A stretch of DNA of 34,331 bases from the NCBI GenBank assembly GCA_041746255.1, contig JBGTHM010000105.1, positions 1-34,331 of the forward strand, written 5' to 3'. Positions 11,725-20,700 of the stretch are shown one piece after another. Position numbers: made by a program. The stretch is from Fibrobacteria bacterium (GTDB lineage Bacteria; Fibrobacterota; Fibrobacteria; UBA11236). Every line of letters begins with the position of its first letter. The stretch's first letter is position 1.

Positions 11725-14700
11725 TAGTTTGTCCACCCAAAGTTGGTGCGGGCGAAAAATCCGGATCATCTAGGTACTAAAGGTTTAACCTTCCTATTCA
11801 CTTCTCTTCCGCAGCTTTTCTCCCCCGGCTGACGCCTTTTTCCAAAGCGGATTTTCGGGCTCTGCGAGCCGCAGCCGGAGGCATGGGCAGCATTTCCGTT
11901 GTTCCTTCGCGAATTTGCGCCAAGGTAGTTTTCTCGGCCCATTCCTGGAATTCCTGATTGATGGCGCTCCAACTGTCGTGCATGGGACAGGGATTGGCCG
12001 AATTGCACTTACCCCACCCGAATACGCATTGATTCGGATGGGCGTCATAACCCACCACCGCCAGGATATTCATATAACTGATACGTTTGGCAGGCTTAGC
12101 CAATGCGAATCCACCACCATGTCCCTTGGCGGAGGTAACCAGACCAGCTGAAACCATTTGCCGCATGATTTTCAGCAGGTAATGTACAGGAACGAAGGTT
12201 GCGTCCGAGAGTTCATGTGCGGTAACCGCCTTGCCGGCAGGGAGCAATGCAAGCCAACTCATGGCTCGCAGGGCATATTCGGCGGTATGAGACAAATTGA
12301 TGGAAATCATGGTTCCTCCCCTGAGTTGAATAATAGACGCAAATGGACGCTACCGGAAGACGATTTTCGCCCGAAAATTGTCAATTTGGCCGAAGGTAGC
12401 ATTTGAATTAATTCGTATGAGCAGTTAAAATAGATATTATTATCTATGGATATTTTTATCTACTGTATCCCATCTCGGATGGCGTCGGTGGAAAGAAGAA
12501 ACGATATGGCCAGGATAGCAATATGAAAACCGCAGGCACCGCCCTAGGGCCCATAATCGTTCCCGGACCAACCCGCTCGGAAACGCCTTATCGGCATTCC
12601 CGAACCCAGGTTCAACCGCTGGATAAAAGTTGGATTCAAGGGGTGGCATTGTCCAAAAATTGGTGGGCGCTCTCGATTCTTTCCATGGCTATCGCGGGTT
12701 TTTATGCCCTGGCCCTGGTGCTGGCCCGCATGCCGGGATTGAGTACCCTTATTACCGACCCCCTCTTCTTTAAGCGCTGCCTAGTCGTGCATGTTAACCT
12801 GGCGCTGGGACTTTGGCTGCTCGCATTCCTGGCCGGAATGTCGGAATGGACACATAGGGGAAGCAAAGGCCAATCCAGCAGACGGCTGGGACTGTTTTCC
12901 GCCTCGCTGGGATTAGCCTGCATCATGGCGGCGGCTTTCATTCCGGGAGTCAATCCCGTCCTTTCCAATTATATCCCGGTATTGGATCACCCCCTGTTTT
13001 TCGGCGGATTGTTCCTGGTGGCTGTAGGTCTATTCGGCGCACTTTCCAGAAAATCCTGGAGTCGGGAAACCTGGAAAGCCAATCCCCTCTCCCCGTTCGC
13101 GCCCCTTGCCGCTGCGCGCCCGCTATTGGCAGTGGCCGGAATCGCCTTTGGTTTCTCCCTAATTACTTTGGCCATCGCCTTCTTGGTTGTGAACCGTTCG
13201 CTGGCATCCCAGCCTTATTATGAATTTCTTTTCTGGGGTCCCGGACATTTGCTGCAAGTCACCCACTCGGCTGGAATGATCGCAGCCTGGATTCTGATTA
13301 CGGGCGAGCTGCTGAAAAAATCACCCGTCTCCTTCAAGGTATCCCGAGCCCTGGCGATAATTCTAATCGCTCCCTGGTTGATATCCCCATTTTTCTCCTG
13401 GCAAGGCCCCGCTTCGATTTGGTTTTTATCGGGGTTTACTCAATTGATGCGGTATGCCATTTTCCCCGTTACTCTCGTTTTCATGGTCATGTGTTTGCGC
13501 AGTCTGCTCGTCTTGCGAAGTGACTCGCAGCCGCCGATGACATTCGCTCGCAAGGCGTTATTGAGCGGTTTGCTCTCCAGCTTCGCCCTTACCGCCACCG
13601 GATTCATACTGGGCGCCATGATACGCGGATCCAACACCATGGTTCCCGCACACTACCATGCCGCAGTAGGAGGGGTTACCGTCGCCTATATGACGGCCGC
13701 CTTTTTACTCGCGCAAAAATTCGATTTCCGCAAAGTATCGAGACGCGCGGGAAAATTGTTATCCCGGCAACCTCTCATCTATGGCGTGGGCCAATTGGCG
13801 TTCGCCTTGGGATTCGCCTTCGCCGGTTACCATGGCGCCGCCCGGAAAAGTTACGGACAGGAACAACAAATCAATTCCTTCTCGGAATCCTTCGGATTGG
13901 CCGTCATGGGAGGCGGGGGCCTGCTGGCCATTGTAGGAGGACTCGCCTTCATGGTGCTTTGTTACCGCCTTTATAAAAACCGTACCGACGCGAACCCGAA
14001 CCTGGAGGATATATGGAAAGTGTGAAGGAGCCTACGTTGGAGACAACGGATAAACGCATGTTGCAAAGGTTGATGGACAACCCTTGGATCCTGTTGATTC
14101 TAGGATTTCTTATCCCTACCATTTCTTACACCATTTGGGGCTGGGTCGAGTTGTTGCGGGTTCCCGTAGCACCGCTTCCCTAGGAGGAAAAAATCATGAG
14201 CATTCAAAGTCCCGCCGCAGGCTGGTTCAAAGCGCCGACAGGTTCGGAAAGGTTATGGATAGGCATCGCCCTGGCCTGGTGCCTGGTCATGTTTTTCATG
14301 ATGCCGTTCTGGCATTTCAAGGGAAAGCAGAACAGCACGGGCGAAGCCTATAAGGTGGCGCCGGCGAAATTCGCGGAGCGGACCTTCGCCTTCGCGGAAT
14401 CCAACAAAGTAGGCGAAGAAAACGGCATACCCATCGTCGAGCCCTTTCCCGGCGGCGACGCCTATTTGCTGGGAAGGATGTGGAGCTGGTATCCCATTCT
14501 CAAGCTGAAAAAGGATCAAACCTATCGAGTGCATATCTCCTCGACGGATTTGCAGCACGGTTTCTCCTTATTGCCCATGAACATGAATTTTCAAATCCTG
14601 CCGGGATACGATCACGTTCTCACCTTGACACCCACCCAAACCGGAACCTTTTCCATCGTCTGCAATGAGTTTTGCGGCATCGGACATCATTTGATGACCG

Positions 14701-17700: not shown

Positions 17701-20700
17701 TTTCGTTATGCTACACGCGCTGGAAGCTTTGATAGCCGGACATTTCGACAAGCCCCGCTGGTTGGCATGGGGAACCGGATTCCTGCTCACCATCGCCCTC
17801 TGGTTCGAAGGTTGGCTCGGCTATTGGCTGGTATGGGACGAACCGGCGCGCCTGGTCGCCGTGGTGTCGGCCCAAGTGTTGGACTATCTCCCCATTTTCG
17901 CCGATCCCATCTCCCGCGCCTTTCTGGTACCCGACACCCTTAATTCGTTGTTTTTTTTCGTGGTGTTCTTCATACACATGCTTATTCCGCTGGCCTTCGC
18001 CATCGGCCTATGGTTACATATCTCCAAATTCAACCGCGCGGCTTTTCTTCCCGGAAAATCGCTCTCGCTGGCCTCGCTGGCGGCAGTGTCGGCGCTGTCC
18101 TTGATATTACCCGCAAGGGCCGGAGCGGCTGCGGATTTACTGAACATGGCGCCGGTTCTCTCCTTGGATTTGTTTTACCTGCTGCCGTTACGGTTTTCCC
18201 AAATCATGAATCCGTGGGTCTGGGCGGTTTTTGCGACTGTCCTTATCCTGCTCATGGCTTTACCGTTCATGCGACGTCAAGCCGGCAAACGTCCACACGT
18301 GACCCCCGAGCGTTGCAACTCCTGCACCCAATGTTATGAAGACTGTCCGTATAACGCCATCACCATGACCACGGACGAGCAGGGCCGGGTCAAGGCCCTC
18401 ATCAGCGAGCCCGACTGCGTGAGTTGCGGGGCGTGCGTGGGATCGTGCAATTCCAAGGCCATTGATTTTCCGGGTTACTCGGCTGACCTGGCCCAAAAGC
18501 GCATCCGGGAATGGTATGCCGCAAGTTCTCCGGCGTTACCTTTGGCTTTCCTATGCGACAAAGCTTTCGCAGGCAACCTGGAGGTGGACGCCGCGACGGG
18601 AATTTCGCCGCAACTGCGCGGTTATAAGGTGGTAACCATGCCTTGCACGAGTTGGCTCAATCCCCTCATGTTGGAATTCGCGGGCAAGTCGGGCGCCCCG
18701 GGAATTTTGGTGGGTGGCTGCGGTACGCTTAATGCCGGCAATAGGCTGGGAACTTTTTTAACCGGGGAAAGAATCGCCGGAAACCGTGAACCCAAACTAC
18801 GCCGGGAGAAGCTGGGGTCAGCGCCATTGCGCTATTTGCATTTTTCTCCGCTGGAAGGGCAGGATTTTATCAACCAGGCGAACCGCTTCCATTCCGATCT
18901 CGGCGCCTCACCCGTATCGGCGGTTACGCGGGAAGTGAAGTCCGGATATCGTCAATACGCAGGTACCGTTTTTACGGGGTTGCTGATATTCCTTTTTCTG
19001 TTGGCGGGGATTTATCTGGGCGAGAGCCGGGAATTCATGGCAGGGGATCCGCAAGCAACGGAGTTGGTCATCTCCCTGAAACACGGGGGCCTCTTCGTCG
19101 ATTCCAAGGTAACGCCCGAGGAAAAATCCCAACAGGAGGAGCTCTTGCCGCATATGCGCGGCGCGGCCTCCGGTGGCAAGCGGGAGCGCATGCCAGTGCG
19201 CATGCAAGTGTTGGTGGATGGAGAAACGAAGCTGGAGAAATCTTACCGCGCAGGCGGATTGTTCCGGGATGGCGAGAGCGTGGCCATGGAAAGGCTGGCT
19301 TTGTTGCCTGGAAAATATCGGGTGGAAGTGCGCATCGCGGATGGAACCAATGCGAATACCTGGCGATTCACCCAAGACCGTACGGTCGAATTCACAGGTG
19401 GCCGTCGCAAGGTGGTGTTTTTCGAGAGCGAGGGAGGTTTCCGATGGTATTGAAGGATTGCATCCTATTGACCAAGCCGATAATTTCCCTATTATCGGGA
19501 ATCTGCGCCGTAACGGGATACCTGCTTGCCGATACCCAGGCGTCTTGGCTGTCTTTAGCTTTAGCCTTTGCGGGCGCGGCGCTGGCGGTGGCCGCCGCTT
19601 CCATACTCAATATGGTGATGGAACGCGACACGGATGCGCGCATGTTACGGACCCACAAGCGGCCTTTGGCCGACGGTCGGTTGCAACCTTTTCAGGCGCT
19701 CGCCTTGGGCATTGCCGCCGCCCTCTCGGGTCTGGCCCTATTGGCGAGTTTATCCTGGACAGCGTTTTGGCTGACGGCCGTCAGCCTCTTTCTATATGAT
19801 TTCGTCTATACTCCTCTCAAGCGCAGAACCCCGTATGCTTTTTTGGTGGGCATCATTCCCGGCGCCGCTCCCCCCCTGATCGGCTGGTCGGCCGCCACGG
19901 GTACCCTGACCGGCGGAGGCTTAGGGTTTTTCATACTGTTTCTGATTTGGCAAATACCGCATATCCTTGCGATATACATCTATCTGGGCGCGGACTATCA
20001 TCGCGCCGGTATTCCGGTACTCCCCGATAGAATGGGATTGGGGAAAGTATTATGGATTTCCCTGGCCTTCTCAACGGCATTGCTGGGTTTGAGCGTGGTA
20101 TTCGCCTGGAGATATATTCCCCATGCGGGCGCGTTGGTCGTGGCGGTAATGGCCGGCGCTTGGCTGCTTTACAGGAACGCGCAATGCCTATGGTCTCTTG
20201 ACTTGGAGGGATGGGCCAAATCCTTTATGCGCTCCACCCTCATCTATTTGTCATTGCTGGTGGCGTCGCTTACGCTATTTCTGGGAACGAGCCGCTGGTA
20301 GCCTTGCTCCGTGTCGGTAACCAGATTTCAAAAACTGTTCCTTCACCCTTAATACTGCTGATTTGCAGGAACCCACCGGATTGTTGGACGATGCCATTGA
20401 CAATGGGAAGTCCCAGTCCATTATTATTCCCGAAAGCCTTGGTGGTGTAATAAGGGTCTAAAATTTGTTCCAACTCCGCTTTCTCCATCCCCCTGCCCGT
20501 ATCCCTGACAGAAATAACGACAAACGCACCCTGGTTCGCGTTGCGGGTTTCCACCACTACCTTGCCTCCCGGGGAGAGCGATTCAAAGGCGTTCGAAACC
20601 AGGTTATGCACCGCATGATCCAATTGCTCAGGGTCGATGGAGACCCATGGATTCCGTGAGTTCGTGGAAACTTCAAGCTCGGTGTCCAATCTTGCCATTT

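Follow-up and report, generated by a model that had tools for sequence, protein, structure and literature searches.

The 34,331-nt stretch of Fibrobacteria DNA analysed here (the window) encodes a nitric-oxide reductase which, judged by its active-site and channel residues, is of the already described eNOR type. We put at about one in two (~0.5) the probability that the surrounding operon encodes this eNOR, the proteins for its biogenesis and a dedicated quinol-oxidising electron module, the fusion protein designated FUS. FUS and COX1L, a COX1-like protein with the fold of haem-copper oxidase (HCO) subunits, are unstudied redox proteins of the membrane that travel with eNOR in many bacterial phyla and may explain the electron supply of this N2O-producing enzyme. 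The initial annotation of this DNA listed eight open reading frames, whose coordinates were confirmed and whose domains were reproduced by Pfam and NCBIfam searches, and its proposal of a self-contained NO-reductase-type haem-copper cassette with conserved extra partners is supported by synteny and by an NO-related context.

Subunit I of the enzyme (14732..16447, plus strand; Pfam COX1 E 4.7e-66) is a Gln-type HCO carrying H71, H233, Q237, Y248, H282/H283, S310, H313 and H387/H389. In an alignment with the ba3 oxidase of Thermus thermophilus, its GH233TSQQ237 faces GH233PIVY237, with Gln237 at the site of the cross-link Tyr; the loss of this Tyr reported earlier is real, and among 65 near-full-length homologues all have the motif GHxxQQ and none the Tyr. 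A Gln residue is the ingroup criterion for eNOR (PMC8756737), and the window protein carries every residue in the eNOR marker column of Dataset S1 of Murali 2024 PNAS (PMC11214002). As sNOR markers the same dataset gives Asn at the Tyr site, where the window protein has Gln; no equivalent of Ser309, where it has Ser; Thr at 312, where it has His; and Glu following Tyr254, where it has Leu. An sNOR/norSY identity was therefore rejected, with none of the four sNOR markers present, and the earlier label of an sNOR-like (norSY-senC) enzyme is wrong: Gln237, Ser310, His313 and Tyr248 are the eNOR signature. Dataset S6 of that paper gives the genome group of the closest cassette locus (L011, JAADJD01) ENOR=1 and SNOR=0; its entries g__JAADJD01 and g__PXDC01, which correspond by name to the WGS prefixes of L011 and L047, both have ENOR=1. 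A tree of subunit I sequences places the window protein beside a second Gln-type clade, its sister group, and away from the A-, B- and C-type oxidases. Its own clade is ~42–44% identical to the two-gene eNOR type, and the two-gene Rhodothermales clade has Q245, S318, H321 and E(II)21, the numbering printed for purified R. marinus eNOR. According to PMC11214002, that purified enzyme reduces NO and does not reduce O2; NO reduction is what we infer for the window enzyme itself.

Subunit II (14196..14720, plus strand; Pfam COX2) is a CuA cupredoxin with one transmembrane (TM) helix. In 42 sequences 62–78% identical to the window protein its CuA ligands are invariant, as are, over all, H121, C156, E158, C160, H164, M167 and E18. 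Upstream lies a gene for a 56-aa peptide (14013..14183, plus strand) with a single TM helix at residues 25–43, which matched no family in a Pfam search but is conserved across loci by tblastn; a similar sequence (…YDNPWLL…TIP) precedes COX2 in three loci of the bare two-gene type (L092, L093 and L097). The peptide is a probable small third subunit of eNOR, conserved and unannotated, and is placed like subunit IIa of ba3, whose gene layout in T. thermophilus we take to be small TM peptide (subunit IIa), subunit II, subunit I.

The SCO1/SenC copper chaperone (16458..17435, plus strand; Pfam SCO1-SenC E 5e-23) has an invariant CxxxC pair (C184/C188) and H273, and an extra N-terminal 3-TM domain in which C60 is invariant. 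Its 3' end runs 4 nt into FUS, and the FUS stop overlaps by 10 nt the start of a CtaB-like haem O synthase (19444..20301, plus strand; UbiA E 1.6e-49) that scores 196 bits against TIGR01473, under the cut-off of 210.3; of the 69 loci with 1200 nt or more of downstream sequence, 17 have a CtaB homologue directly 3' of FUS and in the same orientation. Divergent from the operon is a regulator of the Rrf2 family bearing the cluster motif Cx6Cx5C (11798..12310, minus strand; Pfam Rrf2 E 9e-29; TIGR00738 101 bits, cut-off 73.3), which falls below the NCBIfam equivalog cut-offs for NsrR and IscR; its gene occurs at 25 of 56 related loci. The intergenic region contains an AT-rich imperfect inverted repeat (12426..12467; 19-nt arms, 74% complementary, 4-nt spacer), a candidate operator proposed from the window sequence alone.

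COX1L (12523..14025, plus strand) matches Pfam COX1 at E 3.1e-10 (39.9 bits, cut-off 34.8). Its AF2 model (pLDDT 87.8) has a 12-helix HCO fold, and the best Foldseek matches are HCO subunits I (TM-score 0.57–0.73). The family has 349 representatives at E<=1e-30. In 40 sequences H90, H242 (GGGH.LQ), H377, Y378, H379, R441, K442 and M309 are invariant and the HH pair is absent; 22 more distant members share this pattern and add an invariant E234. On these residues COX1L keeps both haem sites and its metal-B site is degenerate. Once weak tblastn matches (~50–85 bits) to the eNOR subunit I gene itself were removed, COX1L was found at 45 of 56 loci, in place of the 60 of 62 counted earlier. Since it is missing from the other 11, and no copy was found elsewhere in four of the five genomes checked, COX1L is not obligatory.

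Conservation of the locus was followed in a scan that matched 601 pattern stretches and found 450 relatives. The best 80 loci were retained, and the 56 of them that include 5300 nt or more on the upstream side of FUS were used for counting. SCO1, eNOR subunit I and COX2 are each present at 55 of the 56, in agreement with the earlier report that they stand beside FUS, and the peptide at 53. At 55 loci, from roughly nine phyla, eNOR adjoins FUS, a synteny far beyond chance. Clustering of all flanking ORFs gave no other family in more than seven loci; across loci, it showed neither a Rieske protein nor a flavin domain nor a cytoplasmic partner encoded nearby. Three types of eNOR operon were found: the type of the window, always with SCO1 and FUS and usually with COX1L; a type in which a short FUS (cytochrome b, Fer4 and FlpD only) is divergently transcribed beside peptide–COX2–eNOR–SCO1; and a bare two-gene eNOR in genomes without any FUS. 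SCO1 and FUS are jointly present or jointly absent in all three. FUS occurs in 23 of 201 sampled Myxococcota genomes (20 full-length, three short); eNOR accompanies all three short variants and shares a contig with at least nine of the full-length ones, among the cross-matches listed in the COX1L search. The window cassette is unique among the 296 genomes of its phylum sample and was therefore probably acquired horizontally.

The same window also encodes hemN, RIC/YtfE, NnrS and a second SCO1. NirK is present in the genome, and a PF00115 search of it gave only five matches and no other NorB-like gene. Among 51 cassette genomes, many of them incomplete MAGs, 37 encode NirK or NirS (two tables combined by hand) and 14 neither.

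FUS (17432..19453, plus strand) comprises Cytochrome_B (residues 30–197), Fer4 (289–344) and FlpD (371–490) domains, giving a two-haem cytochrome b, two [4Fe–4S] clusters and an MvhD/FlpD-like domain, followed by a TM helix and a periplasmic beta-sandwich. Six TM helices lead to a cytoplasmic region (281–510), a further TM helix (511–529) and the outside domain, modelled as a generic beta-sandwich (pLDDT 91) with near-invariant H574-M575, R586, D596 and D613; a second conserved His is Tyr in the window protein. The four haem His (H81, H95, H182 and H196), eight ferredoxin Cys and C375 are invariant, C405 and C430 nearly so. By hhalign, FUS matches canonical cytochrome b over 232 columns (probability 98.7, E 3.8e-16) through the PEWY position, which reads (I/L)D(W/L)FY with D246 invariant, and the cd-helix motif GYWLVWD is conserved. 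The family size given earlier was reproduced, at 460 proteins with E<=1e-3 among a maximum of 8000 candidates scored. Identity across loci is ~24–42% for FUS, SCO1 and COX1L and ~62–78% for COX2 and eNOR subunit I, a contrast that by sequence is the pattern of accessory factors, not core subunits. In 36 of 51 cassette genomes, that of the window included, a cytochrome b (PF00033) search matches nothing but FUS; the count covers cassette genomes alone, and absence of bc1 may simply be typical of their phyla.

On the reading we favour, eNOR, which is Gln-type and related to the B-family haem-copper oxidases, would be built from peptide, subunit II and subunit I and would reduce NO to N2O. SCO1 would assemble CuA, CtaB would supply haem O as precursor of the haem A-type cofactor, and the cluster-binding Rrf2 protein, probably redox- or NO-responsive, would regulate the operon. 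FUS is read as a Rieske-less cytochrome b whose quinol pocket, Qo-like, lies towards the periplasm, a role in quinol oxidation being suggested by the conserved haem His, GYWLVWD and PEWY-like motif. One electron, at high potential, may pass to the periplasmic CuA side of eNOR, and the other through two b haems across the membrane to the two [4Fe–4S] clusters and an MvhD-type cluster in the cytoplasm; physical contact between the proteins, like the direction of flow, is conjectural. COX1L, a di-haem HCO paralogue lacking a normal metal-B site, may be an additional and optional membrane cytochrome. Against such a module, FUS is dispensable for some eNORs, being found nowhere in ten Rhodothermales genomes with the two-gene enzyme. 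Neither end of its electron chain has an identified partner, and cytoplasmic Fe–S clusters are superfluous for a simple quinol-to-CuA donor.

Co-occurrence with SCO1 and the 4-nt gene overlap fit an assembly role for FUS equally well. By analogy with CcoG, a [4Fe–4S] cupric reductase in cbb3 oxidase assembly, FUS could be a transmembrane/cytoplasmic metallo-reductase acting with SCO1 and not an electron donor, providing CuA with Cu(I) or the metal-B site with Fe(II), or keeping SCO1 reduced. We regard this as possible but clearly the less probable account. CcoG/FixG consists of a TM region, 2x[4Fe–4S], a TM helix and a periplasmic beta-sandwich, an order that FUS parallels; the near-invariant residues of the outside domain, the unusual 3-TM domain of SCO1 with its Cys and the evolution of FUS as fast as SCO1 also speak for it. 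However, the genome's own CcoG aligns with FUS only at the generic Fer4 dicluster (probability 93, 40 columns), and the C-terminal domain is not alignable to it at all. The second outside-domain His is replaced in the window, short FUS proteins keep their eNOR linkage without this domain, and it is hard to see what a metal reductase would do with the conserved Qo-like pocket.

It is more doubtful that FUS exports cytoplasmic reducing power, from ferredoxin or a partner docking at MvhD, through its clusters and haems to the periplasmic side of eNOR, allowing NO detoxification independent of the respiratory chain. Its cytoplasmic Fe–S and MvhD domains and membrane-spanning haems would suit such a flow, as would the stress-type neighbourhood (Rrf2, RIC, NnrS), the 14 genomes without NirK or NirS and a Ferrigenium paralogue reported with added FAD and NADH domains (10.64898/2026.01.22.701106). 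Yet neither FUS nor its neighbourhood has a donor-binding flavin or NAD(P)H domain, the Qo-like motifs speak for quinol chemistry, and missing Nir genes are weak evidence in incomplete MAGs. We give very little credence to an sNOR-like enzyme or a low-O2 oxidase: B-family kinship, a CuA subunit and a linked senC/SCO1 recall norSY-senC-orf1 (PMC4940428), and sNOR itself has been argued to be an oxidase (bioRxiv 10.1101/765727), but the four sNOR markers are contradicted, the Tyr needed for O2 reduction is absent from all 65 homologues and R. marinus eNOR, as cited above, reduces no O2. Just as improbable is that FUS or COX1L is an O2-independent haem A synthase replacing CtaA and partnered with CtaB. 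The overlap of FUS and CtaB genes, CtaA at only one of 56 cassette loci and the haem A-type cofactor of eNOR, whose O2-free synthesis is called an open question (PMC11214002, 10.64898/2026.01.22.701106), are set against the presence of CtaA (PF02628) at other sites in 47 of 50 cassette genomes, as well as in that of the window, and against the small share of loci with CtaB directly after FUS.

Amongst known systems, bc1/b6f cytochrome b is homologous to the N-terminal 250 residues of FUS, with the four haem His, the cd-helix and the PEWY-like motif in common. FUS differs in lacking a Rieske or cytochrome c1/f partner, in its invariant Asp for the PEWY Glu and in its C-terminal half of ferredoxin, MvhD, TM helix and beta-sandwich. 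Residues 288–490 correspond to the Fer4+MvhD end of HdrA2 (NF040770, E 2.5e-18, far below the 1100-bit cut-off), although FUS has no flavin, CCG domain or Rieske subunit, unlike HdrA2/QmoB-type modules and the anammox Rieske/cytochrome b complexes with NAD(P) modules; for anammox, PMC12954380 raises the idea of a cytochrome b complex pushing electrons to a low-potential cytoplasmic acceptor. The best solved relative of subunit I is the B-family T. thermophilus ba3 oxidase (PDB 1EHK/1XME/3S8F; E 2.5e-46), all six His ligands of which align; the window protein has Gln for Tyr237 and His for Thr312, which makes O2 reductase chemistry unexpected. The sNOR of ammonia oxidisers (norSY-senC-orf1; PMC4940428) is likewise a putative NOR derived from the B-family that has CuA and a senC gene linked to it, but differs at all four active-site and channel positions tested.

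With the eNOR family (PMC11214002) the window enzyme shares the Gln that replaces the cross-link Tyr, the Ser, His and Tyr of the K-channel, the subunit II Glu, a CuA subunit II and linkage to haem O/A genes. The text and Datasets S1/S6 of that paper, in the parts available, describe two subunits and CtaA linkage without mention of FUS, COX1L or the small peptide; the window cassette departs from the two-gene type in its constant SCO1 and FUS and its usual COX1L. The eNOR operon of Ferrigenium straubiae (2026 preprint, bioRxiv 10.64898/2026.01.22.701106) shares eNOR II and I, haem O synthase, sco1 and cytochrome b and [Fe–S] genes. The available text of the preprint describes eNOR II/I, haem O synthase, sco1 and a 'scaffold protein' as a common operon, finds eNOR and its cytochrome b/Fe–S neighbours together in a proteome, proposes a supercomplex and interprets the paralogue with added FAD and NADH domains as a quinol:NAD+ oxidoreductase. 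Of the novelty claimed in the initial annotation, cytochrome b/Fe–S genes beside eNOR and the supercomplex idea are therefore already published, and the claim holds only in part. That text mentions neither an MvhD domain nor a periplasmic beta-sandwich, both present in FUS, and treats the cytochrome b genes as 'rather unusual' Ferrigenium markers, whereas here the fusion adjoins eNOR at all but one of 56 loci, spread over roughly nine phyla.

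On its sequence, the enzyme at the centre of the cassette (11798-20301) belongs to the eNOR family and not to the sNOR family, to which the initial annotation had likened it, and NO reductase activity would follow from that membership. Subunit I (eNOR-I, 14732-16447) aligns with the T. thermophilus ba3 enzyme over residues 24-489 (E 2.5e-46, phmmer against solved structures), with ba3 Tyr237 falling on Gln, Ser309 on Ser, Thr312 on His, Tyr248 on Tyr and Tyr244 on Val. In its own numbering eNOR-I thus has Q237 in place of the cross-linked tyrosine (Y237 in ba3, Q245 in R. marinus) and the K-channel residues of an eNOR at S310, H313 and Y248 (R. 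marinus S318, H321 and Y256). Glu18 of the CuA subunit II (COX2, 14196-14720) is invariant in 42 sequences and was matched to Glu21 of R. marinus subunit II by its position ahead of the transmembrane helix, not by structure. All six histidine ligands of the two haems and metal-B are kept in eNOR-I (H71, H233, H282, H283, H387 and H389), the CuA ligands H121, C156, C160, H164 and M167 of COX2 are invariant in 42 sequences, and the motif GHxxQQ is found in 65 of the 65 near-full eNOR-I ORFs (at least 450 amino acids; shorter fragments were left out).

The accessible part of Dataset S1 of Murali et al. (2024, PMC11214002) lists Gln, Ser, His and Tyr as the eNOR markers, and as sNOR markers Asn at the tyrosine site, no equivalent of Ser309, Thr312, Tyr, and a Glu after Tyr254. 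Compared with these, eNOR-I has every eNOR marker and fails as an sNOR throughout, reading Gln, Ser, His and Leu at four sNOR marker positions. Gln at the tyrosine site is the sole ingroup criterion for eNOR in PMC8756737. A B-family O2 reductase would be expected to read GHPxVY where eNOR-I reads GHTSQQ. NO reductase activity, lack of O2 reduction and haem As are reported, in the text available from Murali et al. (2024, PMC11214002), for the R. marinus eNOR only. In the portion of Dataset S6 at hand, g__JAADJD01 and g__PXDC01 are scored ENOR=1, SNOR=0 (PMC11214002); by name, these match the WGS prefixes of two of our cassette loci, L011 and L047, and L011 is among the nearest cassette homologues in a FastTree phylogeny. 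In eight loci, mostly from Myxococcota MAGs (L014, L019-L022, L024, L028 and L033), eNOR-I ends about 35-40 residues earlier ('…W*'), and the last transmembrane helix of the window protein (residues 541-559) is missing or separately encoded.

That phylogeny, built from 53 sequences with every second cassette sequence included and no named reference eNOR among them, gathers the cassette enzymes together (support 93), and their sister is a clade of Gln-type enzymes from bare operons (support 100; joint support 91). Both stand apart from the genome's two A-type enzymes, its one cbb3-type (C-type) enzyme and one Tyr-type enzyme from Rhodothermales. The COX1-like protein (COX1L) forms a separate long branch of unreliable placement. 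Of 201 Rhodothermales genomes searched with eNOR-I, ten have a cassette-type enzyme at 63-68% identity, ten have a bare-type enzyme at 43-44%, and many have Tyr-type oxidases that are 30-34% identical; one Tyr-type Rhodothermales enzyme (L098, GHAIVYF) is only 31% identical. The bare-type enzymes also have GHGSQQ and S..IH. Their loci consist of COX2 and subunit I and lack the other cassette genes, except for a similar small peptide in three of seven, and FUS, the fusion of cytochrome b, two [4Fe-4S] clusters and an MvhD/FlpD-like domain, is found nowhere in the ten bare-type Rhodothermales genomes. Of 201 Myxococcota genomes sampled, 23 have FUS and 20 have COX1L; the latter are the same 20 that have a full-length FUS, both genes being on the same contig, and the other three have a third arrangement in which a short FUS lies divergent from COX2, eNOR-I and SCO1. 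This short FUS (cytochrome b, Fer4 and FlpD, about 530 amino acids) lacks the terminal transmembrane helix and beta-sandwich; the accompanying eNOR-I is 54% identical to that of the window and reads GHSSQQ, and a tblastn match to the small peptide was obtained in one such locus only (L102). The eNOR operons seen here fall into three types: cassette, bare and those with a short divergent FUS.

In the window, at the coordinates first given for them, a divergent Rrf2 gene is followed by seven tightly packed plus-strand genes, with overlaps of 4 nt between SCO1 and FUS and 10 nt between FUS and CtaB; every domain listed for these genes in the initial annotation was reproduced with Pfam and NCBIfam. 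To examine the linkage we searched a one-genome-per-species collection with a profile of 18 FUS homologues, which returned at least 450 relatives, kept the best 80 loci, and took as denominator the 56 of these with at least 5300 nt upstream, in which the window proteins were sought by tblastn. SCO1, eNOR-I and COX2 were each present in 55, the small peptide in 53, COX1L in 45, Rrf2 in 25, CtaB in 22 (at any position) and CtaA in 1. The one exception, L080, has a partial FUS and ample upstream DNA, and lacks eNOR, COX2 and SCO1. The conserved linkage of FUS with eNOR claimed earlier stands (55/56), but the frequency of COX1L is 45/56 and not 60/62: COX1L was scored here only where the match lay upstream of COX2, and weak matches on eNOR-I itself, which account for the higher figure, were dropped. 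No other recurrent neighbour (cytochrome c, Cu-ATPase or flavoprotein) was seen in more than seven loci when flanking ORFs were clustered, with a crude filter that split some clusters. The carriers among the best 80 loci include Calditrichota, Rhodothermales, Balneolaceae, Bacteroidota, Myxococcota, Planctomycetota, Verrucomicrobiota, Lentisphaeria, Leptospiraceae and Pseudomonadota MAGs.

FUS (17432-19453) matches the cytochrome b family PF00033 with 65.2 bits (cut-off 27.2) and the MvhD/FlpD family PF02662 with 26.2 bits (cut-off 22.3). Across 18 sequences the two His pairs that would ligate haem (H81, H95, H182 and H196), the eight ferredoxin cysteines and C375 are invariant, with C405 and C430 conserved to at least 90%; no fourth Cys ligand for a [2Fe-2S] cluster was found. 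From hydropathy and the positive-inside rule, six transmembrane helices are predicted to lead into a cytoplasmic stretch (residues 281-510) with the Fer4 and MvhD domains, followed by a seventh helix and a domain of 145 amino acids on the outside. Modelled with a pLDDT of 91, this outside domain is a generic beta-sandwich. Foldseek found no match for it at E<=1e-3; its best VIA-align match was a luminal domain of HGSNAT (Z 9.3), and no cupredoxin or PCuAC-type chain was among the matches listed. In a complex prediction, pairing the C-terminal domain with the soluble parts of COX2 and SCO1 gave a score of 0.01 against a mark of 0.32, which counts neither way on binding.

Aligned by hhalign with the canonical cytochrome b of another cassette genome, the FUS profile extends over 232 columns (probability 98.7, E 3.8e-16), and its motif (I/L)D(W/L)FY, in which D246 is invariant, falls on the canonical PEWYF. 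That position, together with the motif GYWLVWD of the cd helix, invariant in 18 sequences, makes a Qo-like pocket in FUS plausible. A Rieske/cytochrome b complex in the usual sense does not fit: no Rieske protein is encoded nearby and FUS has no canonical PEWY. Residues 197-296, where a Cytochrom_B_C domain was sought, match nothing in Pfam up to E<=10, and PF00032 (Cytochrom_B_C) has no match in three cassette genomes. No PF00033 match other than FUS occurs in the window genome, nor in 36 of the 51 cassette genomes, a count taken with no background comparison. Three Planctomycetota genomes (G297, G507 and G510) have a second cytochrome b match besides the cassette FUS, in open frames of about 590-650 amino acids, and these may be FUS paralogues in another context. 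FUS was also considered as a relative of the cupric reductase CcoG/FixG. It does not match TIGR02745; against the genome's own CcoG, hhalign found no homology beyond 40 Fer4 columns, and the C-terminal domain scored a probability of 0.3, a weak test with a single CcoG sequence. Nor do the cassette genomes support FUS or COX1L as a replacement for haem A synthase: CtaA occurs in 47 of 50.

COX1L (12523-14025) is predicted by AF2 (pLDDT 87.8) to have the 12-helix fold of haem-copper oxidases. H90, H242, H377, Y378, H379, R441, K442 and M309 show no variation and Q245 almost none, and the HH pair is absent; more distant members have the same pattern, with E234 also invariant. The family comprises 728 clusters at E<=1e-3, with 349 representatives at E<=1e-30, whose source names are hypothetical protein, cytochrome c oxidase subunit 1/I and cbb3-type subunit I, and no PDB sequence matches COX1L at E<=1. 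It is missing from 11 of the 56 loci; among five such genomes one has a copy elsewhere and four show cross-hits only. The available rows of Dataset S6 credit the JAADJD01 genome with A, C and ENOR enzymes only (PMC11214002), and the corresponding locus, L011, encodes a COX1L.

The 56-aa peptide (14013-14183, plus strand) has one transmembrane helix and belongs to no Pfam family. Cassette-type operons share a conserved small transmembrane peptide upstream of COX2, and so do at least three bare-type loci (around 11720 on the minus strand of L092, 9017 in L093 and 9272 in L097). The SCO1/SenC protein matches PF02630 with 82 bits (cut-off 22.8), and its CxxxC cysteines C184 and C188 and distal H273 are invariant in 42 sequences. 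Two Planctomycetota loci have an in-frame TGA at the second cysteine of this motif (L015:8905-9882, CPHT*P; L027:1434-2402, CGFT*P), and their SCO1 may be a selenocysteine-containing protein. CtaB passes the UbiA cut-off and has haem O synthase (TIGR01473) as its best match by far, at 196 bits against a cut-off of 210.3. The Rrf2 protein has three cysteines and passes only the Rrf2 superfamily model, scoring 47.9 bits with the NsrR equivalog NF008240 (cut-off 182).

The cassette was probably acquired horizontally, since among 296 genomes of its phylum eNOR-I turned up in a single one, that of the window, and is absent from the genome of the same genus. The closest FUS among the matches listed is 72% identical and lies on a 3.8-kb contig, followed by a group at 42-43% that includes a Calditrichaeota MAG. 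The window genome has NirK at a contig end, CtaA, and CcoG beside a cbb3-type oxidase, and no NosZ over the cut-off. Among the 51 cassette genomes NirK is over the cut-off in 25 and NirS in 17, with a union of 37 combined by hand; the CtaA, NirK, NirS and PF00033 counts include one genome marked as unpublished, G526, on which none of them depends. Two cassettes have a nitrite reductase close by on their contig: in L013 (G296:C43) NirS is some 3 kb downstream of FUS, and in L051 (G300:C113) NirK and CtaA are a few kb upstream. Downstream of the cassette, at a distance of 8-13 kb (28435-33118), are genes for hemN, the O2-independent coproporphyrinogen oxidase, for RIC/YtfE, an Fe-S repair protein, for NnrS and for a second SCO1/SenC, which give the window the look of an NO/anaerobiosis island. 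Between lies the gene for a ribonucleotide reductase of class II (B12-dependent), 1148 amino acids long and with a TSCPD domain (21734-25180, TTG start in the ORF list). Upstream and unrelated to the cassette are an AI-2E-family transporter gene (2120-3175) and, within 2120-11727, a chemotaxis operon (CheA, MCP, CheR, CheX-like and CheB).

How FUS might serve the reductase can be put as a proposal to which we would give a chance of roughly one in eight: FUS and eNOR would form a Rieske-less, Q-cycle-like electron-bifurcating machine, with COX1L as an uncounted cytochrome. Quinol would be oxidised in the Qo-like pocket of FUS, one electron being drawn via CuA by the very oxidising NO/N2O couple, whilst the other would pass via haem bL and haem bH to the two [4Fe-4S] clusters and on to that of MvhD, which would reduce a low-potential cytoplasmic acceptor, either ferredoxin or a docking flavoprotein. 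In this scheme COX1L would be a cytochrome with two haems, derived from the haem-copper oxidases and of a kind missing from their catalogue. Were this so, NO respiration would pay for reverse electron flow.

eNOR is counted among the commonest overlooked sources of N2O, and is said to have two subunits and haem As and to be frequently linked to CtaA, in the accessible text of Murali et al. (2024, PMC11214002). As far as the available parts of the eNOR literature go, we found no treatment of its physiological electron donor or assembly, no description of COX1L or the small peptide and no claim that the fusion generally marks an eNOR clade, points on which supplements may bear; the accessible sNOR literature did not yield the identity of 'orf1'. 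The fusion itself has left two traces that we could find, though supplements may describe the operon context. One is a single, uncommented table row in PMC8756737 for an ORF with cytochrome b6, DMSOR_beta-like and FlpD domains. The other is the Ferrigenium preprint (10.64898/2026.01.22.701106), the available text of which treats as common a set of eNOR II/I, haem O synthase, sco1 and a 'scaffold protein', calls two cytochrome b/FeS genes unusual, finds all four proteins in a proteome and proposes an NAD+-reducing supercomplex; the supercomplex idea has to that extent been partly anticipated.

A large eNOR clade is always accompanied by FUS, a dedicated SCO1 and the peptide, probably a small third subunit, and often by COX1L. 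Probable mis-annotations, namely 'hydrogenase iron-sulfur subunit', 'cbb3-type oxidase subunit I', 'cytochrome c oxidase' and an uncalled 56-aa gene, can be corrected. Because its sister, the bare clade, has none of FUS, SCO1 and COX1L and only the small peptide, the two together offer a clean comparative handle with which the electron source, energy conservation or bifurcation, and the true subunits of eNOR become directly testable. The bare type has Q245, S318, H321 and Y256 in subunit I and, from its translation, Glu21 in subunit II, the very numbers given for the purified R. marinus eNOR in the accessible text of PMC11214002.
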